From Candidatus Omnitrophota bacterium (GTDB lineage: Bacteria; Omnitrophota; Gorgyraeia; Duberdicusellales; 4484-171), in the NCBI GenBank assembly GCA_021735655.1, contig JAIPGM010000001.1, positions 224,001 through 288,000 of the forward strand: 64,000 nt of DNA, written 5' to 3'. Positions 7,797-55,164 of this stretch are shown here, in pieces (position 1 is the stretch's first letter; each line of letters opens with the position of its first letter). The notes under the pieces are model-generated. The model made no database searches and was not told where the DNA came from. It saw only the letters and a program-made list of their open reading frames with translations. The position numbers and the translations under genes were made by a program.

Positions 7797-8843
7797 TTAT
7801 AAAAATAAAGGATAAATGGTTTTGCCCGGGCATTCTTCCGGACAGGATTTTCCTTTACGAAAGGTCCGGTATTTTTCTCCATACCATATATCCTTAAAAG
7901 ATAACTTATTTATATTTCCGAGTGATTTTTTTTCGGCATAAACACAACCTAAGACTTCACCTTCTAAAGTTATAACTGATTGAACCCAAGACAGATAGCA
8001 GGGTTTTTGTTTAGTCTGGCTTTGAATTTTCTGAGGTATTTTGTTACCACTGGCAAAATTTAAGAAACTTTTAATATTGTTGGGAATTTTTATCTTACTG
8101 GAAATGCTTGAGATTTTTTCCACGAATTCTTCCTGCTCAGACTCCGGAGGAATAAGTCTTTTATTTAGTTCCGGAGTCATAAGTAGAGGTTTAAACAGCA
8201 GCTTATCTGCCGATAATTTCTGGCTAAGAGCGATCATCTCGGCAGCATTGTGGTAATTAAGATTAGATATTACGTTTACCAGAAACAAGAGAGGGTATCG
8301 TTTTTTGCCTTTTAGGGACTTTATCAGGAAGAGATTGTTTAATAAAGTATTGAAATCTTTTTTGTTTCTGGAGGGCCTGATCCTTTGGAAAGTTTCAGCA
8401 TCCGCGCAATGAAGACTTACCAGAATTTTTTTTACACCCTTTTCTATTAGCTTGGCTATATTAGTTTTATCAAGATAAAAGGCATTGGTCATTAGCTCAA
8501 CATTGATTTTTTGCTCACCGGCTATGCTTATAAGTTTAAACAGATCGGGATGCATTAGTGGTTCACCTTCTCCGGTAAATAAAATAGTGTTTACCTGAAG
8601 GGTTTTTAATTGCTTAACCAGGGCAGAAAATGTATCACAGGAGATATGCTGATCCGGTTTTTTTTTGGATATCGCCCCTGAATGATACCAACACATTTCG
8701 CAAGCCATGTCGCATTTATTGGTTATATCAAGAGTTATCTTAAGCGGTCCGGTAAAAGCTCTGCTTCGGGAAAGTATTCCTAGGAGGCGGAGCATATTGT
8801 GAGAATTTGAAAGATAGTGTAGATTGTTTTTTAACGAAAACAT
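7797..8843 (-). CDS. Radical SAM/SPASM enzyme, family B paralog
   Basis: 'ITLDITNKCDMACEMCWY' carries CX3CX2C and a GEGEPLMH motif follows. The C-terminus has a SPASM-like pattern (KPCYLS...GEVLGCVYAE...GNINKLSFKDIWYG...CPEECPG). An alternative start at 8795 (MLRLLG) matches the paralog N-termini. Confidence 0.8.
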   Translation of the reverse strand: MFSLKNNLHYLSNSHNMLRLLGILSRSRAFTGPLKITLDITNKCDMACEMCWYHSGAISKKKPDQHISCDTFSALVKQLKTLQVNTILFTGEGEPLMHPDLFKLISIAGEQKINVELMTNAFYLDKTNIAKLIEKGVKKILVSLHCADAETFQRIRPSRNKKDFNTLLNNLFLIKSLKGKKRYPLLFLVNVISNLNYHNAAEMIALSQKLSADKLLFKPLLMTPELNKRLIPPESEQEEFVEKISSISSKIKIPNNIKSFLNFASGNKIPQKIQSQTKQKPCYLSWVQSVITLEGEVLGCVYAEKKSLGNINKLSFKDIWYGEKYRTFRKGKSCPEECPGKTIYPLFL

Positions 8844-9059
8844 AAGGTGATGTAATATGAGTACAATTAAAAATTATTATATCATTTTTAGCCCCGTAAA
8901 GACAGGGTTTTGAAGGGGATTTCTAGGCTTAAGACAGGCTATTGTGTTATGGTCATTAAGTATATATAATATATATTCCCAGGTAGATACACTAGTATTT
9001 TTCATAATAGTGCTAATTTTAAAGTTTTTAGTAGAATCTAACAAAGAGCTTGAGTATTT

Positions 9060-9911
9060 ATGAGCAAACCTTTATTATCGGTGATTATCCCAGCTTTTAA
9101 CGCCGAAATTTACATTGAAAAATGTTTGCAACCATTGATTAAGAATCTGTCTGATGGTTTAGAAGTAATTGTTGTCGATAATGGGTCAGTTGATAAAACA
9201 GCAGCTATTGTAACTGAGGGATACCCTCAGGTAACTTTGTTGAAAAATCAGGAAAATCTCGGTGCTTGTAGGGCTAGGAATCAAGCTATCGAAGTCTCAT
9301 CTGGAGAATGGGTTTTGACTCTTGATTGTGATGTGGTTTTGGAAGATGACTTTATTTTAAAAGTATCTCAGTTGATAGATGATCTGCCGTCTGATCGTAT
9401 TGGAATAATCCAGCCAAAAATATTGCAAGCTGACAAAAAAACTATTGATTCCTGTGGAATCCATCTTTCCTGGTTGAGGAGATTCTATGATCTTGGGAAG
9501 GGGAAAACTGACTCCGGCCAATTCAATGAATCTATCTATGTTTTCGGCGCCTGCTCAGCCTGCGCTCTTTATCGGCGGACGATGCTTGAGGATTTAAAAG
9601 AAAGTGGAGAATACTTTGATCAAAAGTTCTTTTTTTTAGTGGAAGATGTGGACTTGGCCTGGCGAGCAAATAATAGGCAGTGGCAATCATTCTTTTTTCC
9701 TTTTATTTCTTGTTGTCATATCGGAAAAAGTTCAGGTTTTCCTAAGAAATTCCGGCAGTATCTTTGTTTTCGCAATCGCTACTACACAATAGCTAAAAAC
9801 GAGGGGTTGGGTAGGTATGCCGGAAAAATTTTACCTGTGATTATATATGATTTTCCTAGGTTGGTTTATTTGGCTTTAACTAATAAATATTTCTGGACTA
9901 GAAAATTGTGA
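9060..9911 (+). CDS. Glycosyltransferase family 2
   Basis: 'LSVIIPAFNAE...VIVVDNGSVDKT' is the GT2 nucleotide-sugar-binding signature. A DxD-like 'LDCDVV' and a 'GACSACALYRR' block are present. Confidence 0.8.
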   Translation: MSKPLLSVIIPAFNAEIYIEKCLQPLIKNLSDGLEVIVVDNGSVDKTAAIVTEGYPQVTLLKNQENLGACRARNQAIEVSSGEWVLTLDCDVVLEDDFILKVSQLIDDLPSDRIGIIQPKILQADKKTIDSCGIHLSWLRRFYDLGKGKTDSGQFNESIYVFGACSACALYRRTMLEDLKESGEYFDQKFFFLVEDVDLAWRANNRQWQSFFFPFISCCHIGKSSGFPKKFRQYLCFRNRYYTIAKNEGLGRYAGKILPVIIYDFPRLVYLALTNKYFWTRKL

Positions 9912-11407: not shown

Positions 11408-11518
11408 TAGGCCTGTGTTTTGTTGATGATTTAGCTGGGGTTATGATAAAATATGTAGACTAATGAGAATTACTGTATTAAACGAGACTCATTTACAGCA
11501 AAAGCTTAACCGAAAACA

Positions 11519-14288: not shown

Positions 14289-14307
14289 CTAAAAAAAGGA
14301 GTCACAA

Positions 14308-14544
14308 TTGAAGGACAAAATAAGAAACTTTATCATTAGCAATTTTATGTTTGATGAGGGTAGTTTAGGAGATGATGATTTACTATTTGAGACAGGGATC
14401 ATAGATTCTATGGGATTTATCAAACTGCTCGCTTTCATTGATAAGACATTTAATCTATCTATGGATATGAGTGAAATAAGCATCGATAATTTTAATACTT
14501 TAAACAATATTGTTAAGAGCTTAGAGCGTAAGATTAATAGGTAA
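14308..14544 (+). CDS. Acyl/peptidyl carrier protein (DltC-like)
   Basis: 78 aa. 'GIIDSMGFIKLLAFI' is the DSx phosphopantetheine-attachment motif. Confidence 0.7.
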   Translation: MKDKIRNFIISNFMFDEGSLGDDDLLFETGIIDSMGFIKLLAFIDKTFNLSMDMSEISIDNFNTLNNIVKSLERKINR

Positions 14545-14571
14545 TTATTTTATAAAAAGGAGATTCGGAAT

Positions 14572-15717: not shown

Positions 15718-15718
15718 T

Positions 15719-17302: not shown

Positions 17303-17421
17303 AAAAAAACCATAAAACACTCATGGTAACAATTGTTCTCTGTGGTATTATATTTATAATCAGCTATATTTTATATTTTTTTATAAAGCCTCCGCTTGAA
17401 TTTATATATCAACAATTCTAG
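17299..17421 (+). CDS. DltX-like 40-aa membrane micropeptide
   Basis: Not in the ORF track. Its ATG overlaps the stop of the adenylation gene as ATGA. The translation is MKKNHKTLMVTIVLCGIIFIISYILYFFIKPPLEFIYQQF*. It has one transmembrane segment, and its C-terminal FIYxxF motif resembles my recollection of the DltX C-terminus (FIYNEF-like), which needs checking against a DltX model. Confidence 0.45.
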   Translation: MKKNHKTLMVTIVLCGIIFIISYILYFFIKPPLEFIYQQF

Positions 17422-17452
17422 GATGGCGAATCTTTTTTAAAGGCATGCTATT

Positions 17453-21534: not shown

Positions 21535-21545
21535 AGGCTTAGCTG

Positions 21546-25259: not shown

Positions 25260-27194
25260 ATGATTAAGTTTTTATATCAGGAAATGTACCAGCGCAGAAA
25301 TATTATCGCAATTTTAGTCATTATGCTTATTGTCGGAATGTTCTATTTTCCGACGATAAAGGATATCGATTCTACAATTATAAGCGAGGATGACTGGTTT
25401 GGTTTTTATTACTATGCGGGCATATCAAGATTAACAGCCTTGAAATATCATCAGTTGCCGTTGCGTACTCCTTATCTAGGCGGAGGGTACCCTTCGATTG
25501 CTCACCCTTTCGATTATACCCTAAGCCCTTTTTTCTTTTTTATTTTATTGTTTGGGGAAGTAGCAGGATTAAGGTTGATGGTGTACTTTATTTTTATGTT
25601 TGGTTCTTTGGGGATGTTTTACTTTACTAGATATGTTTTGAAATACAATCTCATGGGAGCTATTTTCTCTTGCTTGACTTTTTCTCTCTGCAGTTGGGGG
25701 GCTTTTGAGGTAGTTGACGGAAATATCCCTAAGATATTTTGTTATCTTTTGCCTTGGCTATTTGCTTTTTTGCTGCAATCTAAAAAAGATAAGCGATTCT
25801 TAATCCTTGCTTGTTTAGTTTTGAGTCCGATTCTGACCCTATCTGGTTTATCTTTTATCCCGGTAGTGCTGGCTTTGTTTTTATTAGCCTGCTTTTATGC
25901 CGTCAGTATAAATAAGGGGTTTAAGTTTAAAATCAGAGGATCGTATATAGCTTTTTTTCTGGCCATAATAATCGGAACCTGTCTTTTATTTGCTATTAAA
26001 GTCATTCCGATGTTTGAACTTTATAAAATGCGCACAGAGTATATTCATTTGCCATACGAGAATTCTTATTCTGCGATTTCCCGAGCCACTAAGGCCTTTG
26101 GCGCTTGTTTGGATATGGAATTACTTAAAAAGTCCTTGTTGGATAAGAGCTTTCGTGGATATTCAACAATGTATTTAGGGTATCTTCCACTCGTTTTTAT
26201 GTTTTTATCGATTTTAATCTATGCAAAAAAAAATATGCGCTACATATTGCTTCTGATCGTATTTGCCCTCATTCAGTTTGGATCGAGAAGTCCCCTGGAT
26301 TTATTTAAGATATTTTGGCAGATTCATCCGTCAGTTCATGGGATATGGAGGCTTAATAAATATTTTGGTTTTTTTATTCCCTTTTTTATTTCTATAATTG
26401 CCGGGAGGTTTTTCTTAATTTTTAGACATAAAAAGATAATTAAACCGCTGGTATTTATAATCATCGGGATTAGTGCATATCATATGTATTCGAATAATAG
26501 ATTGATTTTTAGTCCTATGGTTTACGAAAGAAAGCCGTCTTTGGAGGTGTATGATTCGTTTTTTCCGGTTGAGATAGAAAACACTACCATAGAAAGAGCT
26601 TGGCCGGGATTTCATGAGGTTAAAGACATACGGTCCTATCAGCCTTTTTGGTTGCTGTTACGTCAAAATATAGGAGTGGTGAATTTTAATTGGTCGGGGA
26701 ATTTAAACCTTTCTCAATACGCTCAGCCTAAATATATACTTCCTACTGGTAAACAGGTAGGAGAAATTGTCTATGTCCGTGGTTACGAACAGTTATCCCA
26801 AGATATAAATGTACCAATTGATTTAATGACTGTAGCAAGGGACAACCCTCATTATCAAGGAGAAGTATTTTTTTTGAAAAAAAACAACAAGGTGGACTCG
26901 ACATATCTTAGTCCTAATATAGTAAAAGCTGATGTTAGTCTTAGAAGTCCTGATCGGCTTATTATAAATCAGAATTACCACAAGAGTTGGACAGTGGACA
27001 AGGGCAAGCTGATAAATCACAAAGGCTTGCTGGCAGTTGAGCTTGTAGATCAAGGTGTTCATCAGGTGACATTTAGATATGTTCCTCTAGATTTTTATTT
27101 AGGCGCGATTGTAAGTTTTTTTACACTTATAGGTATGTTGGCTTACTTTTGGTTCGTGCCTGGGAAAAAAATTAGTTTCAATAAAGCTAAATAA
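25260..27194 (+). CDS. Large polytopic membrane protein, YfhO-like (tandem paralog 1)
   Basis: 644 aa with many transmembrane helices. The C-terminus is '…FRYVPLDFYLGAIVSFFTLIG…'. Confidence 0.45.
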   Translation: MIKFLYQEMYQRRNIIAILVIMLIVGMFYFPTIKDIDSTIISEDDWFGFYYYAGISRLTALKYHQLPLRTPYLGGGYPSIAHPFDYTLSPFFFFILLFGEVAGLRLMVYFIFMFGSLGMFYFTRYVLKYNLMGAIFSCLTFSLCSWGAFEVVDGNIPKIFCYLLPWLFAFLLQSKKDKRFLILACLVLSPILTLSGLSFIPVVLALFLLACFYAVSINKGFKFKIRGSYIAFFLAIIIGTCLLFAIKVIPMFELYKMRTEYIHLPYENSYSAISRATKAFGACLDMELLKKSLLDKSFRGYSTMYLGYLPLVFMFLSILIYAKKNMRYILLLIVFALIQFGSRSPLDLFKIFWQIHPSVHGIWRLNKYFGFFIPFFISIIAGRFFLIFRHKKIIKPLVFIIIGISAYHMYSNNRLIFSPMVYERKPSLEVYDSFFPVEIENTTIERAWPGFHEVKDIRSYQPFWLLLRQNIGVVNFNWSGNLNLSQYAQPKYILPTGKQVGEIVYVRGYEQLSQDINVPIDLMTVARDNPHYQGEVFFLKKNNKVDSTYLSPNIVKADVSLRSPDRLIINQNYHKSWTVDKGKLINHKGLLAVELVDQGVHQVTFRYVPLDFYLGAIVSFFTLIGMLAYFWFVPGKKISFNKAK

Positions 27195-29128
27195 TGAGAG
27201 TAGATAAAAAGTATCTTCTAAGTGTATTACTGATAGTTATTATGGTAGCGATGGCTTATTTTCCTTTATTAAAAAATATAAATTCTATGATCACCAGCGA
27301 CAACGATTGGTCTTTTTATACTTTTTATGCTTCTGCCTATCGCACTAGTGTGCTTGAATATAAACAACTTCCGATACGAACTCATCTCTTAGCCGGAGGT
27401 TATCCTTTGATAGCTCATCCTCGTGATTGGAGCTTGAACCCTTTGGCTTTTTTAATCCTTATATTTGGTGAAATCGCCGGACTAAAGCTAAGCATGTTTA
27501 TTTTATTTCTTTTGGGTGGCCTAGGGATGTTTTATTTGGCTAAGAATGTTTTGGGCTATAACTACCTAGGTGCCTTATTTTCTTCATTTTTATATATATT
27601 TTCTAGTTGGGGAGCTTACCATACTGTTCAGGCAAATTTTAGCGTTCTTTTAAGCTATATGCTCCCTTGGGTGATTGCTTTTTATCTTAAATCTATACAT
27701 AAAAGAAAATTTATTATATACGCTTCATTGGCTTTGGCTATGGTAATTACGCTTGGTTCCCTTCTTGTCATACCGACAATTATTTTCTTTTTCATTTTTT
27801 CCCTTATGAAATCTTTAAGCATTCAGAAGCGGTTGAGGTTGAGGTTTAATTCAGGGTATTTAAAGAATTTTACGATGATAGTTTTATGTGCTGTTTTGTT
27901 GTGTTCGGTTAAAATATTGCCTATGGTTGGATTGTTGAATTCACGAACCGATGTCTATTTTCATGGCGCCGGTGAAGAAACCACTTATGATACGATAGAT
28001 CGAAACCATTTTTTTACTTCCGAAAAACTCATTAAGTCAATTTTTGATAAAGGGTACCAACATCGTTTAAAAATTTACTTTGGCTATATTCCTATAGTTT
28101 TTTTTCTGCTAGCTTTATGTTTTTATGGCAAGAAGATGTTTTCGTTTTTCTTTCCGTTCATATTTTTTACCATAGTTATGTTCGGGCCCTATAGCCATCT
28201 AGATTTATATCGATTATTATGGAATTTACACCCTTTCATTCGAGCGATTGTTGAACAAGATAGGTACTTTTTGCCATTTGTTATTTTTCCGGTTGCCCTT
28301 ATATCGGGTAGCGTTTTTCTTTTACTGAAAAGACTAACGAGATTTCGGCCGTTTTGGGCTATCGCAGTAGGAATACTTATAATCTATAGCTTTTTTGATA
28401 CATTTTTTGTTCAGCAAAATATTATGAAGCGGATAGTATATAAGCCAGTTCCGAATACAGCTTCTTTCATTCGGTCACCAGAATCATTTTTCCAGATTGC
28501 CTTTGATGATCCGATTCAAGATATCGAAGAAGAAAAAGGAGAGTTGTCAGTTTGCAGCTCTTCTAATTCCCCTAAGCCTTGTCGGCCGCAGGACTATGTA
28601 TTAATTAAAGATTATACTAAAATATTTCCCCTGATTCGTCAGAATATCGGCGTGGTAACTTTTTGTGGATATGCTGAAAGCTTAGACATAGCCGAATCAG
28701 CAATTCCTAAATATATCATTAATAAGAATAACTACTATGAGCCATTTAGCAATATACATCAATTTAGGTCTATAGCTGATAAACTTGCCGTTAATCCTAA
28801 TTACCGGGGTGAGGCCTTTGCTTTAGGTAAGGACAATAAAATAGAGATTGTGTCACTGGGGCCGACGCGAATAGAAATAAACGCTAATTTTTTAACGCCT
28901 GATACTCTGATTATAAATCAAAATTACCATAGAAGCTGGAAGTCAAACACAGGATTGATTGCTAATCATCAGGGGCTTTTAGCGGTAGATTTACCCGAAG
29001 GAAGGCATGATATTGTATTGCGATATGTTCCTTTAGATTTTTATTTAGGCGCGGCAATTAGCCTGTTGGCTTTGCTGGGTATTGGTGGTTATATTATTTT
29101 TTTAAAGAATGAGCAGGATGGAGAATAA
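27194..29128 (+). CDS. Large polytopic membrane protein, YfhO-like (tandem paralog 2)
   Basis: 644 aa and clearly paralogous to the 25260 gene (…LPIRTHLLAGGYPLIAHPRDW… / …LIINQNYHRSW…LRYVPLDFYLGAAIS…). The start overlaps the upstream stop as ATAATG. Confidence 0.45.
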   Translation: MRVDKKYLLSVLLIVIMVAMAYFPLLKNINSMITSDNDWSFYTFYASAYRTSVLEYKQLPIRTHLLAGGYPLIAHPRDWSLNPLAFLILIFGEIAGLKLSMFILFLLGGLGMFYLAKNVLGYNYLGALFSSFLYIFSSWGAYHTVQANFSVLLSYMLPWVIAFYLKSIHKRKFIIYASLALAMVITLGSLLVIPTIIFFFIFSLMKSLSIQKRLRLRFNSGYLKNFTMIVLCAVLLCSVKILPMVGLLNSRTDVYFHGAGEETTYDTIDRNHFFTSEKLIKSIFDKGYQHRLKIYFGYIPIVFFLLALCFYGKKMFSFFFPFIFFTIVMFGPYSHLDLYRLLWNLHPFIRAIVEQDRYFLPFVIFPVALISGSVFLLLKRLTRFRPFWAIAVGILIIYSFFDTFFVQQNIMKRIVYKPVPNTASFIRSPESFFQIAFDDPIQDIEEEKGELSVCSSSNSPKPCRPQDYVLIKDYTKIFPLIRQNIGVVTFCGYAESLDIAESAIPKYIINKNNYYEPFSNIHQFRSIADKLAVNPNYRGEAFALGKDNKIEIVSLGPTRIEINANFLTPDTLIINQNYHRSWKSNTGLIANHQGLLAVDLPEGRHDIVLRYVPLDFYLGAAISLLALLGIGGYIIFLKNEQDGE

Positions 29129-37486: not shown

Positions 37487-38464
37487 ATGAAAAATATTGA
37501 GAAAGTAAGATTAGCTTGCGCTTTACTGAGAATAAAATTATTGAAAAAAAGAATACCTTTGATAGTTAGCTGGTCGTTAACCTATAGGTGTAATCATAAA
37601 TGTTTATATTGTGGCATTTGGGAAAAAACTTCGGATGAATTAAGCAACGAACAAATTTTTTCACTTATCGACCAAATGGCGGCGGCAGGGACTCAACGGA
37701 TACATTTTACCGGTGGTGAGCCCTTATTAAGAGATGATATCGATAAGATTCTGATTTATTGTAAAAAAAAGGGAATAAGTACTGCATTGAATTCTAATGG
37801 GTTTTTGATTCCTGAAAAAATAAAATCCCTTATTAATCTCGACTTATTGTCGTTAAGCTTAGATGGGCCAGAAGCGGTGCATGATTCCATCAGAGGTAAG
37901 GGCTCTTACCAACAAGTAATGGGAGCGATAGAGGCAGCTAAGAAAAATAATATAAAAATAAAAATAATAACCGTATTGTCAAAGTTAAATCTAGGCCATA
38001 TTGATTTTATTTTGCATAAAGCGCAGGAATTGAAGATTCCGGTTACTTTCCAACCGACGACGATTTCGGTGCTTGAGGGAAGTAAGCCTAACTCCATTGC
38101 CGCTATCAAAGAAGAGTATAATCAAGCAGTTAGCTATTTAATAAAAGAAAAAAGAAAAAACAAATATATAGGTAATTCTTGTTCAGGATTAAAACATCTT
38201 TATGATTGGCCATCACCGTCAAAAATTTCCTGTGTAAATAGTCGCATTATTTGTCGTCTTGAACCTGATGGCCGTCTTTATGGATGCAATGATTATAAAA
38301 ATAAAGGCCTTGCGGTAGATTGCATAACCCTTGGCTTTAAAAAAGCTTTTGATAGCCTTGTGCCTTTTGCTTGTGATGAATGCTGGTGCGCTTCACTTGT
38401 AGAATTAAACTGTTTATTTGCCATAAAATTAGATACTGTTTTTAGTATTATCAAGTTAATTTAA
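37487..38464 (+). CDS. Radical SAM/SPASM enzyme, family A paralog
   Basis: 'LTYRCNHKCLYCGIW', 'TGGEPLLRDDI' and a SPASM tail (CDECWCASLVELNCL). Confidence 0.8.
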   Translation: MKNIEKVRLACALLRIKLLKKRIPLIVSWSLTYRCNHKCLYCGIWEKTSDELSNEQIFSLIDQMAAAGTQRIHFTGGEPLLRDDIDKILIYCKKKGISTALNSNGFLIPEKIKSLINLDLLSLSLDGPEAVHDSIRGKGSYQQVMGAIEAAKKNNIKIKIITVLSKLNLGHIDFILHKAQELKIPVTFQPTTISVLEGSKPNSIAAIKEEYNQAVSYLIKEKRKNKYIGNSCSGLKHLYDWPSPSKISCVNSRIICRLEPDGRLYGCNDYKNKGLAVDCITLGFKKAFDSLVPFACDECWCASLVELNCLFAIKLDTVFSIIKLI

Positions 38465-38473
38465 TGATATGAA

Positions 38474-39463
38474 ATGAAAAAAGCCGAACTATTAGCTGCT
38501 TATAATTTGTCAAAGGCAAAATTTTTTAGGAAGAAAATTCCTTTAGTGGTCGGATGGTCTGTTACTAATAGATGTAACTGGCACTGTGCTTATTGTACGC
38601 GATGGAGTGATCATTCAGAAGAGCTAGATACAAAACAGATTTATTCTATTTTGGACGAATTATTTCAGATGGGCACCTATAGTATTAATTTTACTGGGGG
38701 TGAACCATTGATAAGAGATGATATAGATAGAATAGTTTATTATGCAAAAAGAAAAGGCATCAACGTAACCATTAGCAGTAACGGTTCGTTAGTATCCCAA
38801 AAGATTAAAGAGATTCGTAAAGCTAACCCCCTTATTATTATAAGCTATGATGGGCCGCAAGATGTGCATGGTAGGCAGAGGCAAAAAGATTCTTATCAAT
38901 CTGTGTTGGATGCGATCGAGGCAGCAAAAAAATGTAATATTTTTGTAAAACTTCATACAGTCTTGACTAGGCATAATATAGAGCATGTTGATTCTATATT
39001 AGATTTTGCCAAAAAGTTGGACCTAACTGTGAATTTTGCTGTTGTCGAGTTCACTCCTTTTAGTAAAGAAGAAGCAGTTAAGACTTTATTGCCACCAAAA
39101 GATAAGTATAAATCAGCACTTAAATATCTCATATTTGAAAAAAGAAAAGGTAATAGTAGCGTTAGTAATTCACTTAGTGGTTTGCAATACCTTGAGCAGT
39201 GGCCTGAGTATAGAAAAATAAATTGCTGTGCTGGAAGAATTTACTGTCGGATTGAGTCCAATGGTGATGTTTTTCCTTGTGGCAATTTAATTTTTAAAAG
39301 CAAACCTCGTAACTGTTTAGAATTAGGATTTAAAAATGCTTTCGAGAATATTGAATTTAATGATTGTAAATCCTGTTGGTGTGATACCAGAATTGAGTTG
39401 AATCGTATATATTCTTTTAATTTAGGAGCTATTTTAGAGGTAAAAAGAACTTATAAATTATAA
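38474..39463 (+). CDS. Radical SAM/SPASM enzyme, family A paralog (tandem with the 37487 gene)
   Basis: 'VTNRCNWHCAYCTRW', 'TGGEPLIRDDI' and a SPASM tail (CKSCWCDTRIELN). Confidence 0.8.
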   Translation: MKKAELLAAYNLSKAKFFRKKIPLVVGWSVTNRCNWHCAYCTRWSDHSEELDTKQIYSILDELFQMGTYSINFTGGEPLIRDDIDRIVYYAKRKGINVTISSNGSLVSQKIKEIRKANPLIIISYDGPQDVHGRQRQKDSYQSVLDAIEAAKKCNIFVKLHTVLTRHNIEHVDSILDFAKKLDLTVNFAVVEFTPFSKEEAVKTLLPPKDKYKSALKYLIFEKRKGNSSVSNSLSGLQYLEQWPEYRKINCCAGRIYCRIESNGDVFPCGNLIFKSKPRNCLELGFKNAFENIEFNDCKSCWCDTRIELNRIYSFNLGAILEVKRTYKL

Positions 39464-39466: not shown

Positions 39467-40846
39467 ATGAAACAGATTGAAACCGAAGTGCTTATTCTTG
39501 GTGGCGGGTTGAGCGGGCTAATAGCCGCAGAGCTTTTATCTAAAGAAAGAAAAAAAATATTTATTTTAGAAAAAGAGTCTGTATCCGGTGGTTTAGCAAC
39601 GACAGTTCAATTCGAGGGCTTTAAGTTTGATATCGGAGGGCATAGAGTTTGTTTTAATAAGTCAGAGAATATAAATTATTTTAAAGATATCCTTGGTGAA
39701 AAAAAGTTTTTATTTTTGAAGAGAAAAAGCAAGATCATGTTTAACGATAGATATGTAAATTACCCCTTGAGCATCGGTACCGCATTTAATGTAAAAAAAA
39801 TGCATTTATTAAAAATAGCTTTTGATAGGCTTGGTGTGTATTTAAAAAGACAAAATAACTTGACTCCAGATAATTTTGAAGATTGGATAAAGATACATTA
39901 CGGGAAAACATTGTACAATATGTTTTTCAAGGAATATACAGAGAAAGTCTGGGGCAGGCCGTGTGGCGAGCTTTCTTCTAGCTTGGGGATAAGGAGAATG
40001 GGTAGTAAAAAACTATCAAAATTAACTAAATGTATTTCTAGGGGTGACGATGCTTTCAGGGAAAGCGCCCGCTCTTTTTATTACCCTCAAGAAGGAATGG
40101 AGGCGTTAATTAATGCTTTCGAGCAAAAATTAGGTACTAGTTGTAATATTCACAAAAATGTTCGAATCGGAAAAATTACCAGGTCTAACGGAGGGCTGAG
40201 CTGTTTATTGGCCAGCTCTAAAGGAGAACCTTACAAGATAAATTTTAAATATATCTTTTCTTCAATACCGCTTACAGAGCTTTTTAAAGCATTATCTATT
40301 GATGGGTTAACTTTGCCTCACAATTTAGAAAAAGGAATACAATATAGAAGTTTAGTTTTGGTAAGTATGATTGTTAATAAGAAAAATATCTCCCGGTGGC
40401 ATTGGTGTTATTTTCCTTCCCGGAAAGTTATATTTTCAAGATTACATGAGCCAAAGTTTTGGAGTAATGGTATGGCTGTAGATGAGAACAAGACATTGAT
40501 ATGTGCAGAAGTGTTTTGTAACTACAATGATTCATGTTGGCTTATGAATGATCGTGACCTAGCAATAGCAGTAAAAGAAGGTTTAAAGATTAATAAATTA
40601 ATCGATAGTGATCAAGATGTAGGTAATTTTTGCGTAAAGAGGATAAGATATGCCTATCCGCTACCAACTTATGAGTATAAAAAATATTTATCCATAGCTA
40701 AAAAGGCACTTAGTTCTTTTAATAATCTTTTTTTAATAGGAAGGAATGGAACCCATTCTTATTTTAATATGGAAGAATGCCTCGATGATGTGAAAGAGAA
40801 GGTTAAATTTTTACATGAAAATAGCAGTAATTATCCCCGTAACTAG
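39467..40846 (+). CDS. FAD-dependent oxidoreductase, UDP-galactopyranose mutase-like
   Basis: 'VLILGGGLSGLIAAELL' is a GxGxxG dinucleotide fold. 'YNMFFKEYTEKVWGRPCGELS' resembles the UGM 'YT.KqWG' block. Confidence 0.55.
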   Translation: MKQIETEVLILGGGLSGLIAAELLSKERKKIFILEKESVSGGLATTVQFEGFKFDIGGHRVCFNKSENINYFKDILGEKKFLFLKRKSKIMFNDRYVNYPLSIGTAFNVKKMHLLKIAFDRLGVYLKRQNNLTPDNFEDWIKIHYGKTLYNMFFKEYTEKVWGRPCGELSSSLGIRRMGSKKLSKLTKCISRGDDAFRESARSFYYPQEGMEALINAFEQKLGTSCNIHKNVRIGKITRSNGGLSCLLASSKGEPYKINFKYIFSSIPLTELFKALSIDGLTLPHNLEKGIQYRSLVLVSMIVNKKNISRWHWCYFPSRKVIFSRLHEPKFWSNGMAVDENKTLICAEVFCNYNDSCWLMNDRDLAIAVKEGLKINKLIDSDQDVGNFCVKRIRYAYPLPTYEYKKYLSIAKKALSSFNNLFLIGRNGTHSYFNMEECLDDVKEKVKFLHENSSNYPRN

Positions 40847-41852
40847 ACCAGAGCAGGCCGCTATCTGCGTAGATGCCCTTTCAAAACAAAGTTTTCTTAA
40901 TTCTGAAATTGAAATTATCCTCATTAAAGATAAGGATCAGGTTATAGAATTAAAAAAAACTGATATAAAGATAATTATTATAGAAGAGGAAAATCCGCAC
41001 CCTGCTTTTCGGAGAAATTTAGGAGTAAAGCTAACTAATGCAAGGATATTGGCTTTTTTGGATGATGATACTATACCTTGCTCAGAGTGGCTTAGCGAAG
41101 CAGTTCGATACATCGAGAAAGAATCGGTAGATGGTGTTTGTGGGCCTGAATTGCAGTCGCAAAATAACTTATCACTGGGTTATACTCTGGCCGGGGCAGC
41201 TAATGAGACTTTTTTTGTAGAAGGAGTTGAGCGGATGAATGTTACTAGTGAGGGGCCAGTAAGATTTTATAATATTCGTTTATGTAATGTGATTATGAGG
41301 CGTAAAGTGTGGGAGGCCGTGGGAGGATTCAATGAAATAGCTAATTATCACATTGATGATATCGAGTTTTTTTATTTGGCTTGTAACAAAAAGTACAGGT
41401 TCCATTATATACCGAAGATGCTAGTTCACCATCGGCCAGAACCATTTCCTTTTAGATACCTAAAAAAGAAGTTTAACGAGCGGTTCTATACGGGCATGAA
41501 TGCTATGATGTTTAGGGAGATTTATTCATTGATTCCTCAGATATGGTTTGTATATTTACTATATCCGATCATAATTCTTATTTTTTTATTATTTTTTAGT
41601 AATAGCATGTATATCATGCCATTTTTAGCAATTTATTTTGGGCTAATTTTGTGGTTTTCCTACCCTTGGTTTCGGAAAAATAAAAAGATTTTTATTCTTT
41701 TGCCGATAGTATTTATATCGACGCATATAGTTGAGCTAATAGGTTTTTTAGCAGGTACTTTTTATTTTTTTGTTAACAGAAATTATGGGGATGTAACCGT
41801 TAGGATTAAACAGGGAAGATTAGAAAAATGCTCCGAAAGTTTGACGTTATAA
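40815..41852 (+). CDS. Glycosyltransferase family 2 with a C-terminal membrane anchor
   Basis: 'IAVIIPVTRPEQ…', 'FLDDD' and 'GGFNE'. The C-terminal third has about 4 transmembrane helices. Its 3' end overlaps the next rSAM gene. Confidence 0.7.
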   Translation: MKIAVIIPVTRPEQAAICVDALSKQSFLNSEIEIILIKDKDQVIELKKTDIKIIIIEEENPHPAFRRNLGVKLTNARILAFLDDDTIPCSEWLSEAVRYIEKESVDGVCGPELQSQNNLSLGYTLAGAANETFFVEGVERMNVTSEGPVRFYNIRLCNVIMRRKVWEAVGGFNEIANYHIDDIEFFYLACNKKYRFHYIPKMLVHHRPEPFPFRYLKKKFNERFYTGMNAMMFREIYSLIPQIWFVYLLYPIIILIFLLFFSNSMYIMPFLAIYFGLILWFSYPWFRKNKKIFILLPIVFISTHIVELIGFLAGTFYFFVNRNYGDVTVRIKQGRLEKCSESLTL

Positions 41853-42904: not shown

Positions 42905-42939
42905 TATATTATAATTAATCTATTCATTTTGGAGTGTTG

Positions 42940-43764
42940 ATGCAAGTTGAAAGTGGGCTGAACGCGATAAGTATAGATGTAGAAGAGTGGTACCAAACAA
43001 CGCTTATCAATGGAAATAATTTTAGTAACACAGAATCTACAAGTTTATTAAAAAATATAGATGAGATATTGTCACTTTTTGAGGAGTGTAACACGAAAGC
43101 TACTTTTTTTATTGTAGGATCAGTAGTTAAGCAATATCCTGATATTGTTAGAATGATAGCTGAGCGAGGTCATGAGTTGGCCAGCCATGGTTATTTCCAT
43201 AAATTAGTTTATAGAATGTCTAAGCAGGAGTTCTCTCGTGACCTTGCCCTTTCGTTAGATGTTTTAAGAGAGAGTGCACAGACGAATATTTTAGGATATC
43301 GTGCCCCGACTTGGTCAATTATTAATGATGCTCATTGGGCGGTAGATATTCTTCAGGCGGCAGGATTAAGGTATGATTCAAGTATTTATCCTTTTAGTTT
43401 TAATTTGATAAAATCTCGAAAATTAGAAAGGTTTCCATATAAAATTAATGATAATTTTATTGAATTTCCGCCCTCTACATTCAAATTTTTGAATTACAAC
43501 TTACCTTTTTGTGGAGGCATGTTTTTACGTAATTTTCCGCTTAGTTTTATCAAGAATAAAATTATTGAGATAAACGCAAAAGGCCATCCGGCCATGGTCT
43601 ATCTACACTCTTGGGAGTTTGATAGTCAGGCAGCTAAGTTCAAAATTCCTAATTGGAAAAGATTGATTCAATATAGTAATATAGGCAGCGTGAAAGGAAA
43701 GCTATTAGAACTTTTGCAAAGCTTTAAATTTACTTCAATAAAAGAAGTTTTACAGCTTAGGTAA
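42940..43764 (+). CDS. Polysaccharide deacetylase (CE4, NodB-like)
   Basis: 'ISIDVEEWYQ', 'TFFIVGSVVKQYP…ERGHELASHGYFH' and the His-box 'YRAPTWS' are present. GGAG lies 5 nt upstream of the ATG at 42940. The ORF track starts at a GTG at 42934. Confidence 0.65.
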   Translation: MQVESGLNAISIDVEEWYQTTLINGNNFSNTESTSLLKNIDEILSLFEECNTKATFFIVGSVVKQYPDIVRMIAERGHELASHGYFHKLVYRMSKQEFSRDLALSLDVLRESAQTNILGYRAPTWSIINDAHWAVDILQAAGLRYDSSIYPFSFNLIKSRKLERFPYKINDNFIEFPPSTFKFLNYNLPFCGGMFLRNFPLSFIKNKIIEINAKGHPAMVYLHSWEFDSQAAKFKIPNWKRLIQYSNIGSVKGKLLELLQSFKFTSIKEVLQLR

Positions 43765-43864: not shown

Positions 43865-45559
43865 ATGATGATTACTCGCAGTCGATTTACAAATTTTATT
43901 TTCTATTTAATTATTTTTTTTGTAGTCTTGCTAGCATGTTTATTTATATTTAATAATATAGCGAAGTTTTCCTATTTAACTTATGATAATGAAGAGAGTG
44001 AGAAAGTGTTGCCAGCATTGGTTATTTATCAGGATTTTCGCTCAGGCGACTTAATTTCCTTTCTCAAGCATACATTCGACCAATCAGTGTACCCTTTTTT
44101 AAATTCCTGGTTTCTAGGCTTATATTATTGTATTTTTGGAGTTAGCATAATTAGTTCTCGGGTTTATAGTTTAATTTGTTACTTTTTTTTCCTTATTGTT
44201 TTATATTTTCTCGGTAGAAAAATATGCAAAAGACCTAGCGCTATTTCAGGTTTGATTCCTTGTTTTTTTGCTTTAACTAGTAGCATAGTGCTTATTTATG
44301 CAGCTAAGAGCACTCTTGAATTACCTTACTTATTTGTAGCCTATTGTACATTTGCTTTGTATCTAAATACAATAAACAAGCCCAGTCGCAATAAATTAAT
44401 CGCAGTGAGTTGTTTGATGGCTGCTGGTTTTTTGATCGAGTATGGCTATGGAATTCTAATGGTAATTACGCTTTTAGCAACTCATTTAATAAATAATGGT
44501 TTCAAAGTCAAAAGTATTATAAACAAATCGGTTGCTTATCTCTTTGGACCTTTCATTGTTCTTTCAATTATATGGCTAAGTTTTCCTTTTCGCTTCGTAG
44601 GCTATGTTAGTAAGATTCCTTTTACCGCTTCTTCTTACCTAAAAATTAAACTGCCCTATAAACTTGCTGGACTTTTATATTTGCCAACCTCAGATGTATC
44701 GCACTATAAGATGTTTAGTTGGGAAAATGCTGTTTATTATTTTAAAATAATTAGTAATCAATTTTCAATTTCGCTTATTGTTGCTTTGCTGCTTCTTGTA
44801 TTTTTTTCAGTTTCTTTTCGTGATATAAAAAATAAGAGAACTAATGTTTTTTTGATATATTTTGTTGTTACAATGATATTAGCTTTCCTTTACCCGATTA
44901 AATCTCATCGATACATAATATCAGCTGTTCCCTGCCTTTGGCTTTTAGCCGGTTATCAGATTAATAATTTAATACTTAAGGCAAAAAAGATGTCGCTTGC
45001 TTATAGATATTTCCTTAATCTATTCGTTGTTTTATTTGTATTTTTACATGTTCCAAGCGTGGTTAATCTATACAAGAATTATCCGCAACGCTTATCATGG
45101 GAATATGAGTCTAAAAAAGATCATTTAGAAGTTTACAATTTCATTCTTTCACATATAGATGTTAATAAAAAAGTAGTTGAAGTTGGGTTCCGTGATCCTC
45201 TTTTGATACAAGGACTTACTTGGCATATTCTTGCTAGGCCTTCCAATAAAGATATAAGCTATGATGACTTAAAATTAAGATCTGTTCCTCTCTGGAATTT
45301 AGCAGACGATAGGTTGTATGATGCTAAACATTTAGTTGCGTCTTTACGAGAATATTTGGATGAAAAGGAAGTTGATTATATTGTTTTTACAGAATGGTTA
45401 GGTGATTCGACAGAACATGGAGACCTTCGATATCAGAAAGTTTTGGCTGTCTGCCGAGAGTTATTGAATAATCAAGATTGCTACAAGATAGTAAGGAAAA
45501 AATTATTTAAAGATATCCAAACCGAGGTAGCTATTTACAAAGCAAATAGTTTTTATTAA
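43865..45559 (+). CDS. Polytopic membrane protein, GT-C-like
   Basis: The N-terminal half has about 10 or more transmembrane segments with an early acidic loop (LTYDNEESEKV). A C-terminal soluble domain follows. Confidence 0.4.
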   Translation: MMITRSRFTNFIFYLIIFFVVLLACLFIFNNIAKFSYLTYDNEESEKVLPALVIYQDFRSGDLISFLKHTFDQSVYPFLNSWFLGLYYCIFGVSIISSRVYSLICYFFFLIVLYFLGRKICKRPSAISGLIPCFFALTSSIVLIYAAKSTLELPYLFVAYCTFALYLNTINKPSRNKLIAVSCLMAAGFLIEYGYGILMVITLLATHLINNGFKVKSIINKSVAYLFGPFIVLSIIWLSFPFRFVGYVSKIPFTASSYLKIKLPYKLAGLLYLPTSDVSHYKMFSWENAVYYFKIISNQFSISLIVALLLLVFFSVSFRDIKNKRTNVFLIYFVVTMILAFLYPIKSHRYIISAVPCLWLLAGYQINNLILKAKKMSLAYRYFLNLFVVLFVFLHVPSVVNLYKNYPQRLSWEYESKKDHLEVYNFILSHIDVNKKVVEVGFRDPLLIQGLTWHILARPSNKDISYDDLKLRSVPLWNLADDRLYDAKHLVASLREYLDEKEVDYIVFTEWLGDSTEHGDLRYQKVLAVCRELLNNQDCYKIVRKKLFKDIQTEVAIYKANSFY

Positions 45560-46586: not shown

Positions 46587-46608
46587 TAGCAGAATTAATT
46601 GAATATTT

Positions 46609-47466: not shown

Positions 47467-47478
47467 GTTAAAGGCGGC

Positions 47479-52058: not shown

Positions 52059-52065
52059 ATGGGTA

Positions 52066-53049: not shown

Positions 53050-53074
53050 TATCTGATAATTTCTAAACTAGAAT

Positions 53075-54058
53075 ATGGATATTTCAGTAATAATTCCATC
53101 GTATCGACCAGCTGACATAAAAGAATGTTTGAAATCTATTTTTGAATCTGATCTTAGGCCTTGTGAGATTATCTTGGTAGATGATTGTTCAACTCTTGAT
53201 TATTTCAGAGAAATAGATAGTTTTTGCCAGATAATTAAGTTGAAAGAACACGTCGGTCCGGCCAAAGCCAGAAATATTGGTGCTTGTCAAGCAAAAGGGG
53301 ATATTTTTTGTTTCATTGATTCCGATGTTAAAATATTTAGCAATACCTTGAGATTAATAAGTGATTCATTTCAATCTTTACCAGAAATTGCTGCCGTTCA
53401 AACTGCATGCACAGAATATTGTAGATTCACGAATTTTGCAAGCCAATATCATAATTTATACCTATATTTTCACATTGAAGCAATCAGGTGTAAATATATT
53501 AGGACTTTCATCGGAAATTGTTTTGCAGTAAAAAAAGAAGACTTTGTTTCGGTAGGAGGGTTTAATGAAAATATTAAAAATGCAAGCGTCGAGGATGGTG
53601 ATTTTGGTATGCGACTGTCTGAGCAGGAAAGAATAATATATCTAAATAAAAACATTAAAATTGAGCACAGAAGTTATATTAAATTACGAGGCGTACTAAA
53701 AAGAATGTTTATTCAATCCCAAGATAAAGTGTATACTTTAATGAAAAATAAAAGTTTATTTAAATTTTCTCCGGATAAAACTCCTCACTCGAAGGAAAAA
53801 ATATTTTCAGTATTATTGTCGCCTTTGTTGCTGATCAGTTCCATTATTTTAATTTTTGCTCCAAAAACGTATGTAATTTTTCTCTCAGCCTTATTGCTAT
53901 ATTTATTGTCTAGCAGGCAGTTTATCTATTTTACCTTGAAATCCAAAGGGATAATGTTTGCAATTAAAGCTGCTGTTTTTTATTACCTTAATTGCTTAGT
54001 TGCTTTCGTTGGCATAACCTGGGGTGTAATCAAGTTTGGGGGGGGTAATATTATCTAA
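53075..54058 (+). CDS. Glycosyltransferase family 2 with a C-terminal membrane anchor
   Basis: 'ISVIIPSYRPADIKECL…IILVDDCS', 'FIDSDV' and 'GGFNE'. The C-terminal helices are transmembrane. Its stop overlaps the next start as TAATG. Confidence 0.75.
   Translation: MDISVIIPSYRPADIKECLKSIFESDLRPCEIILVDDCSTLDYFREIDSFCQIIKLKEHVGPAKARNIGACQAKGDIFCFIDSDVKIFSNTLRLISDSFQSLPEIAAVQTACTEYCRFTNFASQYHNLYLYFHIEAIRCKYIRTFIGNCFAVKKEDFVSVGGFNENIKNASVEDGDFGMRLSEQERIIYLNKNIKIEHRSYIKLRGVLKRMFIQSQDKVYTLMKNKSLFKFSPDKTPHSKEKIFSVLLSPLLLISSIILIFAPKTYVIFLSALLLYLLSSRQFIYFTLKSKGIMFAIKAAVFYYLNCLVAFVGITWGVIKFGGGNII
54038..54045. repeat. Homopolymeric G8 tract in the last codons of the GT2 gene, 13 nt before the coupled rSAM start
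   Basis: The sequence is tttGGGGGGGGtaat and encodes …FGGGNII*. G8 is rare in this AT-rich sequence. Confidence 0.9.
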
Positions 54059-55164
54059 TGCAGTATATTAAACAAATTTTTAAACTGATTAATAAGAAAA
54101 GTGTGAATCCAGAATATGTTACATTTTTTATTACTAATAAATGCAATGCAAAGTGTAAGCACTGCTTATATTGGTCTAGCCTTAATTCAGACGAAAACGA
54201 ATTGTCTTGTGAGGAGGTTAAAAAGATATCGCAAAATATGGGCAACTTTATATTTTTACTTATCACCGGCGGTGAGCCATTCATGAGAGAAGATATTTCA
54301 GAGATTGCTCGTATTTTTTATGAGAATAACAACATTAAAAAACTTTCCCTAGTGACCAATGGCTATTTTACTGATAAAATAATTGGACATACTAAGGAAA
54401 TATTAAGAAGGTGTCCAAAATTACAGTTGAACCTAAGTATTTCCTTGGATGGCATTGGCAAAAGGCACGATGAAATTAGAGGCCTAGAGGGTATTTTTCA
54501 AAGAGCAATTAATACCATTGGCAATCTAAAAAAAGTTCAGAATTCTTATCCGAAATTATCTATTTCAACCGTTTGCTCATTTTCAGTTTTAAATCAAAAC
54601 GATATTTTTGATATTTATCATTACGCAAGGGATGTTCTTAAACTTGATTCATTTAATTGTCCTTTAGTTCGCGGTAATTTAAAAGACAACTCAATAAAAT
54701 CAAGTGATATAGCTATATACAAAAAGCTTTCAGAGGTTGTGAGAGCTGATGTTGTCAGCGGTAAATTAAAAGGGGCCAGCGATCATTTTATATCTAATGT
54801 AATATCTGCGGCTAAATTTATTGCGACAGATTTAAGCGTAAAGACTTTTGAGGCTGACAAATATATAACTCCCTGTTATGCCGGTAAAATAAATGTAGTT
54901 ATTTACCCTGACGGAGGGGTGTTTCCTTGTGAATTGCGAAAGGAAAAGTTGGGAGATTTAAGGACGGCGAATTATGATTTTAAAAAAATATGGTTTTCAA
55001 AAAAATCAAAAAGAGTTCTTGAGAAAATAAAAGAAACTAAATGCCATTGTTTTCATGGTTGTAATATGTTACCTAATGTTTTATATAATTCTCGATATAT
55101 ACCTAAGATGACTGTGAATTATATAAATGTATTATTAAAGAGATCAGGCAATAACTACAATTGA
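54058..55164 (+). CDS. Radical SAM/SPASM enzyme, family B paralog
   Basis: 'FITNKCNAKCKHCLYW', 'ITGGEPFMREDI' and a SPASM tail (PCELRKEKLGDL…CHCFHGCN). Confidence 0.8.
   Translation: MQYIKQIFKLINKKSVNPEYVTFFITNKCNAKCKHCLYWSSLNSDENELSCEEVKKISQNMGNFIFLLITGGEPFMREDISEIARIFYENNNIKKLSLVTNGYFTDKIIGHTKEILRRCPKLQLNLSISLDGIGKRHDEIRGLEGIFQRAINTIGNLKKVQNSYPKLSISTVCSFSVLNQNDIFDIYHYARDVLKLDSFNCPLVRGNLKDNSIKSSDIAIYKKLSEVVRADVVSGKLKGASDHFISNVISAAKFIATDLSVKTFEADKYITPCYAGKINVVIYPDGGVFPCELRKEKLGDLRTANYDFKKIWFSKKSKRVLEKIKETKCHCFHGCNMLPNVLYNSRYIPKMTVNYINVLLKRSGNNYN

Follow-up and report, generated by a model that had tools for sequence, protein, structure and literature searches.

What do glycosyltransferases and radical S-adenosylmethionine (SAM) enzymes do together when their genes stand side by side, more than once, in the genome of an uncultured bacterium? 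The question is raised by a 64,000-nucleotide stretch of Candidatus Omnitrophota bacterium (assembly GCA_021735655.1, contig JAIPGM010000001.1, positions 224,001 to 288,000 of the forward strand), called the window below, which is essentially a single long plus-strand gene array of about 35% G+C. A preliminary description had reported four copies of a module in which a membrane-anchored family-2 glycosyltransferase (GT2) is coupled by gene overlap to a radical SAM enzyme (rSAM) with a SPASM domain, and had proposed that both act on a carbohydrate or glycolipid. Three of the four copies are real. Their glycosyltransferases, called GT2-TM after their transmembrane (TM) helices, and their radical SAM enzymes, called rSAM-B, almost certainly work together functionally, as judged from the sequences, since they are neighbours or fused in many uncultured bacteria and archaea. 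We further propose, with a probability of roughly 0.55, that the GT2-rSAM unit builds a lipid-anchored sugar and radically edits it before export. The three pairs consist of the following genes.

29109..30101, plus strand: GT2-TM of pair 1, a membrane-embedded family-2 glycosyltransferase with DAD and GGFSS motifs and C-terminal helices at about residues 239-324
30098..31213, plus strand: rSAM-B of pair 1, with C28/C32/C35 and auxiliary C270, C289, C327, C329 (and C333)
40815..41852, plus strand: GT2-TM of pair 2, with DDD and GGFNE motifs and C-terminal TM helices
41828..42904, plus strand: rSAM-B of pair 2, with PF04055 at 50 bits, SPASM at 19.6 bits (below the gathering score) and 34-36% identity to the other two
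53075..54058, plus strand: GT2-TM of pair 3, with DSD and GGFNE motifs and C-terminal TM helices
54058..55164, plus strand: rSAM-B of pair 3, with SPASM at 28.2 bits (above the gathering score)

At each of the three places (29109-31213, 40815-42904 and 53075-55164), a GT2 with a C-terminal membrane anchor is indeed followed by a paralogous rSAM, and the overlaps of 4, 25 and 1 nt measured in pairs 1, 2 and 3 agree with the reported 1-25 nt. Domain scans with Pfam and NCBIfam, which covered all 56 open reading frames (ORFs) of at least 100 aa in the window, place the paired GT2s in PF00535 (46-108 bits vs. a gathering score of 23.3) and all three rSAM-B proteins in the radical SAM superfamily (PF04055, 50-60 bits vs. 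29.5). The rSAM-B trio is paralogous (32-36% identity over about 340 aa, E 1e-62 to 1e-70) and contains the cysteine strings CYCSWECA, CSCNWECA and CHCFHGCN that had been described; the DxD and GGF(S/N)(S/E) motifs are present in all three GT2s. The overlap itself, which had been presented as a distinctive trait, is common in this array: of its 48 junctions between same-strand genes, 18 overlap, and the gap has a median of 9.5 nt, so that an overlap between GT2 and rSAM is uninformative. More telling is that the two subfamilies appear in one and the same order at all three places. For three genes of each kind among 54, direct arithmetic gives a chance of 6/(54x53x52) = 4e-5 that each GT2-TM directly precedes an rSAM-B.

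This number bears on the simplest rival explanation, in which there is no specific coupling and the adjacency arises from the dense packing of many GT2 and rSAM paralogues. The Pfam and NCBIfam scans count 13 radical SAM genes in the window (two of the B12-binding kind) and six GT2 genes, and overlapping genes are the norm, all of which would suit such an origin. However, the order is not only repeated three times here but is also kept across phyla that are not related to each other, in bacteria as in archaea, with repeated gene fusion. Chance adjacency is refuted by these fusion and synteny data, and we leave it hardly any probability.

Synteny in relatives, a check that the preliminary description had proposed, came out clearly in favour of the pairing. 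A search over 5.8 billion proteins (E <= 1e-10) returned 134 relatives of rSAM-B, all from uncultured organisms. GT2 and rSAM form one polypeptide in P0012, P0016 and P0018, and a Lokiarchaeota fragment (P0013) has them in the order GT2-TM-rSAM. In a deltaproteobacterium and another metagenome-assembled genome, a GT2 of about 320 aa is followed by the rSAM with a 4-nt overlap, with a polytopic membrane protein of about 630 aa on the 5′ side, and a 617-aa GT2~rSAM fusion stands isolated amid archaeal housekeeping genes (TFIIB, LSM, tRNA-intron endonuclease). A scan of one genome per GTDB species, using a profile from 12 sequences, gave at least 555 loci, 80 of which were retrieved, with no cultured host seen among the 80; the positions of GT2 and rSAM in the related loci are the hit coordinates of hidden Markov models built from the window proteins. 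In the 37 close loci, which come from other genomes and have an rSAM of 220 bits or more on the rSAM-B profile, a GT2-TM gene is adjacent in 21, fused in five and within 2.6 kb in three, lying directly upstream on the same strand in 19 and directly downstream in two. Lineages with rSAM-B loci include Omnitrophota, Elusimicrobia, Planctomycetota, Chloroflexota, Myxococcota and other delta-, alpha- and gammaproteobacteria, together with Clostridia, Melainabacteria, Wolfebacteria of the candidate phyla radiation (CPR), Woesearchaeota and Nanoarchaeia. The synteny of the pair spans more than 10 phyla and both domains of life, up to gene fusion.

When 1.84 billion cluster representatives (50% identity) were searched exhaustively with a profile, 3,238 rSAM-B clusters were obtained at E <= 1e-30, a count for the whole family that includes a sub-clade without a GT2 link. 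Full GT2-TM~rSAM-B fusions of 618-719 aa, some of them archaeal, make up 13 of the best 150 cluster representatives. Twelve of these 13 match the GT2-TM profile over its full length and keep the TM helices between both catalytic domains, while the shortest, P0259 (618 aa), matches at residues 8-219 only (56.5 bits) and has no predicted TM helix. The best matches of GT2 and rSAM partners were concordant in 13 of 25 cases, an uninformative figure as the three window pairs are nearly equidistant. In open-access text, we found no paper on the GT2-rSAM pair, the fusion or the rSAM-B family.

We then considered which kind of radical SAM enzyme rSAM-B could be. An alignment of 42 diverse members has exactly seven invariant cysteines, C28/C32/C35 and C270, C289, C327 and C329, with C333 present in 74% of the members. 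No N-terminal domain precedes the CX3CX2C motif, which spans residues 28-35, and the motif's start at residue 28 leaves no room for an N-terminal recognition element (RRE) of the kind used in the maturation of peptides made by the ribosome and modified after translation (RiPPs). In the AlphaFold (AF2) model, which has a predicted local distance difference test score (pLDDT) of 92, C270 and C289 flank a beta-hairpin (C-x13-G-x4-C), and C327 and C329 follow the next long helix; this is the twitch-type arrangement, with CX9-15GX4C around a beta-hairpin and two cysteines after the following helix. The SPASM label did not hold. The seven-cysteine motif CX9-15GX4C...CX2CX5CX3C...C is missing, the tail being CxCx3C, and the Pfam model PF13186 (gathering score 21.5) is absent in 30098-31213 and scores 19.6 in 41828-42904 and 28.2 in 54058-55164. 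Since only four extra cysteines are invariant, and these flank the hairpin or come after the helix, the model indicates that rSAM-B has one fully cysteine-ligated auxiliary cluster and is twitch-like rather than a full SPASM enzyme. Nor is rSAM-B an anaerobic sulfatase-maturating enzyme (anSME), which the preliminary description had regarded as fatal to its proposal: TIGR03942 hits only 41828-42904, where its 49 bits fall short of the cutoff of 349, and the 56 window ORFs scanned include no sulfatase domain.

A peptide substrate was the other such outcome. On this explanation, rSAM-B would be a RiPP or redox-cofactor maturase in the manner of MftC, PqqE or the sactisynthases, and the GT2 would glycosylate the product, as with MftF or SunS. 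Some of the top NCBIfam matches, MftF among those of the GT2s (65-78 bits) and PapB, HxsB and AhbD among those of the rSAMs, are of this kind, although every one of them falls far below its cutoff. A cassette of PqqD, rSAM and Cys-rich peptide is also found in the same window (995-2653), but its PqqD and peptide (995-1288 and 2480-2653, the only ones in the window) belong to a different rSAM (1288-2442), 27 kb from the nearest pair. The three pairs themselves have no intergenic small ORF beside them, and neither PqqD/RRE nor a conserved small ORF accompanies any of the three or any of the roughly 37 close related loci; 90 related loci contained a single weak PqqD-like match. With no N-terminal extension, no RRE/PqqD and no co-located precursor, rSAM-B does not resemble the peptide-maturing rSAMs, and the fusions occur as isolated genes. 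We consider peptide maturation very unlikely. The earlier statement that no small precursor ORF is associated with the modules is right for the three pairs and fails at the left end of the window, where the 57-aa Cys-rich ORF (2480-2653) has a PqqD partner. More broadly, the proposal of joint action on a carbohydrate or glycolipid rather than a peptide keeps its coupling (synteny and fusion) and its lack of a peptide partner and of an anSME, and loses the count of four and the SPASM assignment.

The acceptor side of the reaction depends on the glycosyltransferase. D91 and D93 of GT2-TM are invariant in 45 sequences, and hydrophobic helices extend from about residue 236 to 328, reaching the C-terminus. 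In a fold search, the GT2-TM model resembled the minimal cellulose-synthase-like fold (HAS, BcsA, PcManGT) and not GtrB/ArnC, which contradicts a polyprenyl-phosphate sugar synthase of the GtrB/ArnC type as the paired GT2. The ArnC model likewise scores 27 bits on a paired GT2 vs. 150 bits on the unpaired short GT2 47479-48219, and GT2-TM does not fall among the polyprenyl-phosphate glycosyltransferases (GtrB/ArnC/DPMS type). It is also unlike the processive cellulose, hyaluronan and chitin synthases, as the QxxRW motif is absent from the paired GT2s and the TM helices are too few for a translocation channel. Because of the fold match, the weak ArnC score and the lack of QxxRW, the paired GT2 is best described as a putative non-processive, minimal cellulose-synthase-like membrane GT2, and by its predicted structure it is not a generic polysaccharide glycosyltransferase. 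Minimal cellulose-synthase-like GT2s are expected, from PcManGT and the lipid GT2s, to glycosylate a membrane-presented acceptor.

From these features, we infer a scheme, including the physical complex, the lipid anchor of the substrate, the sequence of steps and the kind of radical chemistry. The core of each of the three modules would be a two-enzyme unit of GT2 and rSAM-B at the cytoplasmic face of the membrane. The non-processive, inverting GT2-TM would move a sugar from a nucleotide sugar onto a membrane acceptor (a lipid or a lipid-linked glycan), and the twitch-type rSAM-B would dock on GT2-TM, to whose C-terminus it is fused in many organisms. The 5′-deoxyadenosyl radical of rSAM-B would then abstract hydrogen from the same lipid-anchored sugar, with the single auxiliary [4Fe-4S] cluster as a possible electron acceptor or conduit, as in BtrN-type dehydrogenases. 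A single fully cysteine-ligated auxiliary cluster is what BtrN and other sugar dehydrogenases use. Among the possible chemistries, we would therefore put first an oxidation that gives a keto-sugar, or else an epimerisation or rearrangement that is redox-neutral. Further processing may be carried out by a B12-rSAM, other rSAMs (family A, below), a deacetylase and an aminotransferase, after which the product would cross the membrane via a flippase-like protein and be transferred to an envelope acceptor by GT-C glycosyltransferases (YfhO-like and PMT_2).

The radical step could also precede the transfer. Here rSAM-B would make an unusual nucleotide-sugar donor by deoxygenation, decarboxylation or epimerisation, in the way of DesII, BlsE and AprD4, and channel it to the GT2, with the lipid as acceptor only. 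Against this, rSAM-B is 13-16% identical to BlsE and DesII and matches no equivalog model; in the fusions, the rSAM follows the membrane domain and does not lie beside the nucleotide-binding domain; and no sugar-nucleotide genes are found near the stand-alone archaeal fusion. Donor supply is an unlikely explanation, but the strongest of the rivals.

The repeated unit is larger than GT2 plus rSAM, as every pair comes with one or two rSAMs of a second group, family A, and a nearby large polytopic membrane protein. The neighbours of the pairs are as follows.

25260..29128 (25260-27194, 27194-29128), plus strand: two tandem 644-aa polytopic membrane proteins directly 5′ of pair 1, divergent YfhO-like (GT-C type) candidates
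31213..32640, plus strand: B12-binding radical SAM directly after rSAM-B of pair 1, with B12-binding and Radical_SAM domains; HpnJ at 179 bits vs. a cutoff of 577.6
32570..33616, plus strand: family-A rSAM of module 1, with paralogues 37487-38464, 38474-39463, 51078-52058 and 52039-53049
37487..39463, plus strand: two family-A rSAMs of module 2, just 5′ of pair 2
39467..40846, plus strand: FAD amine-oxidase / UDP-galactopyranose-mutase-like flavoprotein, overlapping the start of the pair-2 GT2
42934..43764, plus strand: polysaccharide deacetylase (NodB-fold + DUF3473) directly after pair 2; XrtA-system deacetylase at 240 bits vs. a cutoff of 276
43865..45559, plus strand: GT-C glycosyltransferase (PMT_2 / ArnT-like) of module 2; PF13231 at 37 bits, above the gathering score; about 12 TM helices
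51078..53049, plus strand: two family-A rSAMs of module 3, just 5′ of pair 3
55166..56107, plus strand: flippase-like (LPG_synthase_TM) membrane protein, 1 nt after rSAM-B of pair 3; PF03706 at 134 bits; TIGR00374 at 59 bits, above the cutoff of 43.2

Several of these neighbours accompany the pair elsewhere. The five family-A rSAMs share 35-45% identity (top model the PTO1314 family, 105-123 bits, below cutoff), and a 46.5%-identical orthologue takes the same position in the Elusimicrobiales locus L029 (13254-14273), where the order is GT2~rSAM-B fusion, B12-rSAM, family-A rSAM and flippase-like protein. The B12-rSAM that follows the fusion there is a 50%-identical orthologue of 31213-32640. 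In the Omnitrophota locus L010, the order is YfhO-like, GT2-TM, rSAM-B and GT-C, the protein 5′ of the pair belonging to the 644-aa family, and in L089, B12-rSAMs, PMT_2 genes, GT2 and the pair alternate. The flavoprotein family of 39467-40846 also adjoins GT2/rSAM genes in L088. In L004 (15934-17055), an A-like rSAM is preceded by a 644-aa membrane protein and by a GT2 of its own that carries a GT2_TM_C domain. GT-C or flippase-like partners recur in L001, L010, L029, L063 and L089. The GT2 is absent from L001 (8001-16702), and the rSAM is flanked by a gene like the UbiA-family prenyl/phosphoribosyl-transferases and by three PMT-type GT-C genes; this locus, the closest non-self relative of rSAM 30098-31213 on a long contig, also has three B12-rSAMs and a DegT aminotransferase.

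GT-C enzymes draw on sugars that are linked to a lipid phosphate. It is mainly because these enzymes and flippase-like proteins recur nearby that the substrate is placed on a lipid carrier in our scheme, and this context points to lipid-anchored intermediates rather than to the stepwise tailoring of a growing polymer. The same neighbours bear on a further explanation, in which rSAM-B alters the hydrophobic acceptor (a polyprenol, alkyl or isoprenoid chain, as do Tes/GDGT-MAS, Grs and HpnH) and the GT2 then glycosylates it, giving an unusual glycolipid. Against such lipid editing, the GT-C and flippase-like neighbours indicate glycan transfer, and the likeness of rSAM-B to Tes is confined to the common rSAM core, the extra clusters and domains of Tes being absent. 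We regard it as improbable.

A number of points weigh against the reading that GT2-TM and rSAM-B build and edit a lipid-anchored sugar. No GT2 lies nearby in eight of the 37 close loci, three of which are without upstream sequence. A Chloroflexi-rich sub-clade of rSAM-B is never found beside a GT2 and adjoins one to three B12-binding rSAMs instead; its members (L046, L054, L055, L057, L059-L061, L072 and L073) are distant, at 180-196 bits, and mostly from Chloroflexota. The wider rSAM-B family has a second, GT2-independent context, and because of this and the eight loci, it is not strictly GT2-dependent. None of the NCBIfam models reaches its cutoff on rSAM-B or GT2-TM, and the amphipathic C-terminal helix lends weak support to an association with the membrane. 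The large membrane proteins beside the pairs belong to several unrelated sequence families, those of other genomes not being connected to one another by phmmer, and the 644-aa proteins are candidates for YfhO/GT-C via distant homologues only. Finally, the earlier suggestion that every added sugar is tailored radically would be one option among several, as rSAM-B could just as well work on the donor, a nucleotide sugar, ahead of the transfer, or on the acceptor lipid.

The evidence on the 644-aa proteins is as follows. They are 35% identical to each other, with about 12 N-terminal TM helices and one C-terminal TM helix, a topology that fits YfhO. Their homologues at E 1e-59 carry PF09586 YfhO, while the direct PF09586 score is 15 bits vs. 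a gathering score of 28.5, over the C-terminal TM helix. A profile comparison with the PMT_2 GT-Cs gave 37% probability, and a PDB sequence search with these proteins found no match.

By its predicted gene content, the window is a very large envelope-glycan island. It has at least four PMT_2-type GT-C genes and three polytopic proteins without family assignment, GT4, WecA-like and O-antigen-ligase-like genes at its right end, and deacetylases, a DegT aminotransferase, a flippase-like protein and acylation genes. The acylation genes, which suggest that the glycan or lipid may be O-acylated, lie at 13092-18748 and encode an MBOAT protein (13092-14288), an acyl-CoA dehydrogenase (14572-15717) and an AMP-dependent ligase (15695-17302); three GDSL/SGNH proteins with N-terminal TM segments are found at 17453-18748, 33627-34916 and 34919-36196. 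The window also includes the nickel-pincer cofactor genes LarE (327 bits, above cutoff), LarB (AIRC domain) and LarC (Ni_insertion, 478 bits) at 18745-22760, followed on the 3′ side by a DUF362 protein and then a 323-aa protein without family match. We saw no LarA (DUF2088), the user enzyme, in the window, and a PDB sequence search with the DUF362 protein and its 323-aa neighbour gave no match.

The only large intergenic gap of the array (36209-36592) carries two small membrane ORFs, 36209-36388, a member of the DUF5989 family (53 bits), and 36404-36592, a 62-aa hydrophobic ORF that overlaps the start of a PP-loop ATPase-like gene (36589-37425). Both are membrane peptides rather than RiPP precursors. 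Some of the listed overlaps are artefacts, because the longest-ORF rule takes far-upstream TTG starts: ORFs 32570-33616, 3495-4277 and 22705-23676 have a TTG start far 5′ and overlap the preceding gene by 56-71 nt, and their true starts are probably further downstream.

The claimed fourth module and the peptide cassette occupy the left end of the window.

995-1288: PqqD/RRE, overlapping the rSAM/SPASM gene 1288-2442
1288-2442: rSAM/SPASM of the RiPP-like cassette; top model ACGX-system rSAM, 169 bits, below cutoff
2480-2653: 57-aa Cys-rich ORF ending in ...TTAGCGCCGCCCCW
2669-3559: P-loop/HprK-like protein
4304-5149: signal-peptidase-I-like and GNAT-like protein
5161-6594: B12-rSAM
6614-7882, minus strand: NTP_transf_5
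7797..8843, minus strand: rSAM/SPASM claimed as the fourth family-B member, outside the rSAM-B trio, overlapping the NTP_transf_5 gene 6614-7882
9060..9911, plus strand: GT2 claimed as the fourth, soluble, with no predicted TM helices and no GGF motif, overlapping the GT-C gene 9908-11407 by 4 nt

Genes 7797-8843 and 9060-9911 do not form a fourth module: they are divergent, the rSAM is of another subfamily and the GT2 has neither TM helices nor the GGF motif. The best paralogue of the rSAM is 45570-46586 (E 4e-28); within the trio, it matches 54058-55164 only (25% identity, E 7e-10), and its top NCBIfam match is a tungsten-cofactor oxidoreductase maturase model (124 bits, below cutoff). The GT2 is coupled to the GT-C gene 9908-11407 instead of an rSAM, and the NTP_transf_5 gene that the rSAM overlaps borders the cassette of PqqD, rSAM and Cys-rich peptide. 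The 57-aa ORF, with its C-terminal string GCGCCGCCCCW, is likely a Cys-rich precursor. A row at 45570-48219 parallels the grouping 7797-8843 / 9060-9911 / 9908-13081 and may be a second kind of rSAM, GT2 and membrane-protein grouping, as far as its genes suggest. It consists of rSAM/SPASM 45570-46586, an HpnK-like YdjC deacetylase (46609-47466, 178 bits vs. a cutoff of 232.6) and the ArnC-like short GT2 (47479-48219, 150 bits), after which comes a 535-aa polytopic protein without family match.

What would follow from the proposed unit? Tentatively, at rather less than an even chance, GT2-TM~rSAM-B could be a widespread, undescribed machine of bacteria, CPR and archaea that glycosylates and radically edits, making non-standard sugars (keto, epimerised, deoxy, C-branched or carbocyclic) on a lipid carrier to feed the envelope-decorating GT-C enzymes of uncultured anaerobes. 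If so, uncultured anaerobes and archaea (Omnitrophota, Elusimicrobia, DPANN, Asgard, CPR) would have a route to unusual envelope sugars without oxygen-dependent chemistry. Glycoconjugate assembly would gain a new enzyme class, and radical chemistry on lipid-linked sugars would be a general, overlooked layer of cell-surface glycan diversification. Thousands of entries annotated as 'radical SAM protein' or 'glycosyltransferase' would also gain annotation handles. The fusion with a membrane glycosyltransferase gives this large and phylogenetically broad rSAM family an unusually firm, testable functional hypothesis, and the natural GT2~rSAM fusions are convenient single-gene targets for heterologous expression.

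We compared the pair with systems that share part of its design. To our knowledge, sugar-acting radical SAM enzymes are known almost only from antibiotic pathways, two poorly understood cases on lipid head groups, HpnJ and Cds, being the exceptions. BtrN (2-deoxy-scyllo-inosamine dehydrogenase), BlsE (cytosylglucuronate decarboxylase) and DesII are 13-16% identical to rSAM-B, which matches no equivalog model, and BlsE TIGR04466 is not among the top NCBIfam matches of the trio; these enzymes act on soluble antibiotic intermediates and are neither paired nor fused with membrane GT2s. PcManGT, the Pyrobaculum membrane mannosyltransferase, and the cellulose and hyaluronan synthases share the fold of GT2-TM at 13-19% identity, whereas GT2-TM is without QxxRW and has few TM helices. 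We know of no rSAM partner described for PcManGT or for the cellulose and hyaluronan synthases. Mycofactocin likewise has an rSAM (MftC, rSAM/SPASM) and a membrane GT2 (MftF) in one cluster, and MftF is the top NCBIfam match of two of the three GT2-TMs, at 65-78 bits vs. a cutoff of 280. However, there is no MftA precursor, MftB/PqqD or MftD/E beside the pairs, and rSAM-B has four auxiliary cysteines, not seven.

The overall flow proposed here is that of ArnC/ArnD/ArnT, GtrA/B/C and CsbB/YfhO, in which a cytoplasmic GT2 loads a lipid carrier, the sugar may be edited (by the ArnD deformylase), and flipping and GT-C transfer follow. Parts of the Arn type occur in the window as the ArnC-like GT2 (47479-48219, 150 bits), the ArnD-fold deacetylase (42934-43764), the PMT_2/ArnT-like GT-Cs, the candidate YfhO-like ones and the flippase-like protein. 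Of the published systems, the nearest in logic, ahead of the Arn type, are HpnI/HpnK/HpnJ of the bacteriohopanetetrol cyclitol ether pathway and the archaeal calditol synthase Cds. In these, a membrane lipid receives a hexose from a glycosyltransferase, after which an rSAM remodels the lipid-bound sugar (PMC13459092). This logic of glycosyltransferase then rSAM on a lipid-bound sugar would be common to GT2-TM/rSAM-B, Cds being likened by description. The window has an HpnK-like YdjC deacetylase (46609-47466), an HpnJ-like B12-rSAM (31213-32640) and an HpnL-like flippase-type protein (55166-56107), but it does not encode the Hpn pathway: HpnJ TIGR03471 scores 179 vs. 577.6, HpnK TIGR03473 178 vs. 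232.6 and HpnI TIGR03472 27.7 vs. 310, and the ORF domain scans of the window showed no squalene-hopene cyclase or other hopanoid gene. Moreover, rSAM-B is not B12-binding, and the GT-C context of the window is foreign to the Hpn pathway. In summary, since there are precedents for a glycosyltransferase followed by an rSAM, the GT2-rSAM pair would, by analogy, extend the known radical tailoring of glycoconjugate sugars rather than be categorically new.

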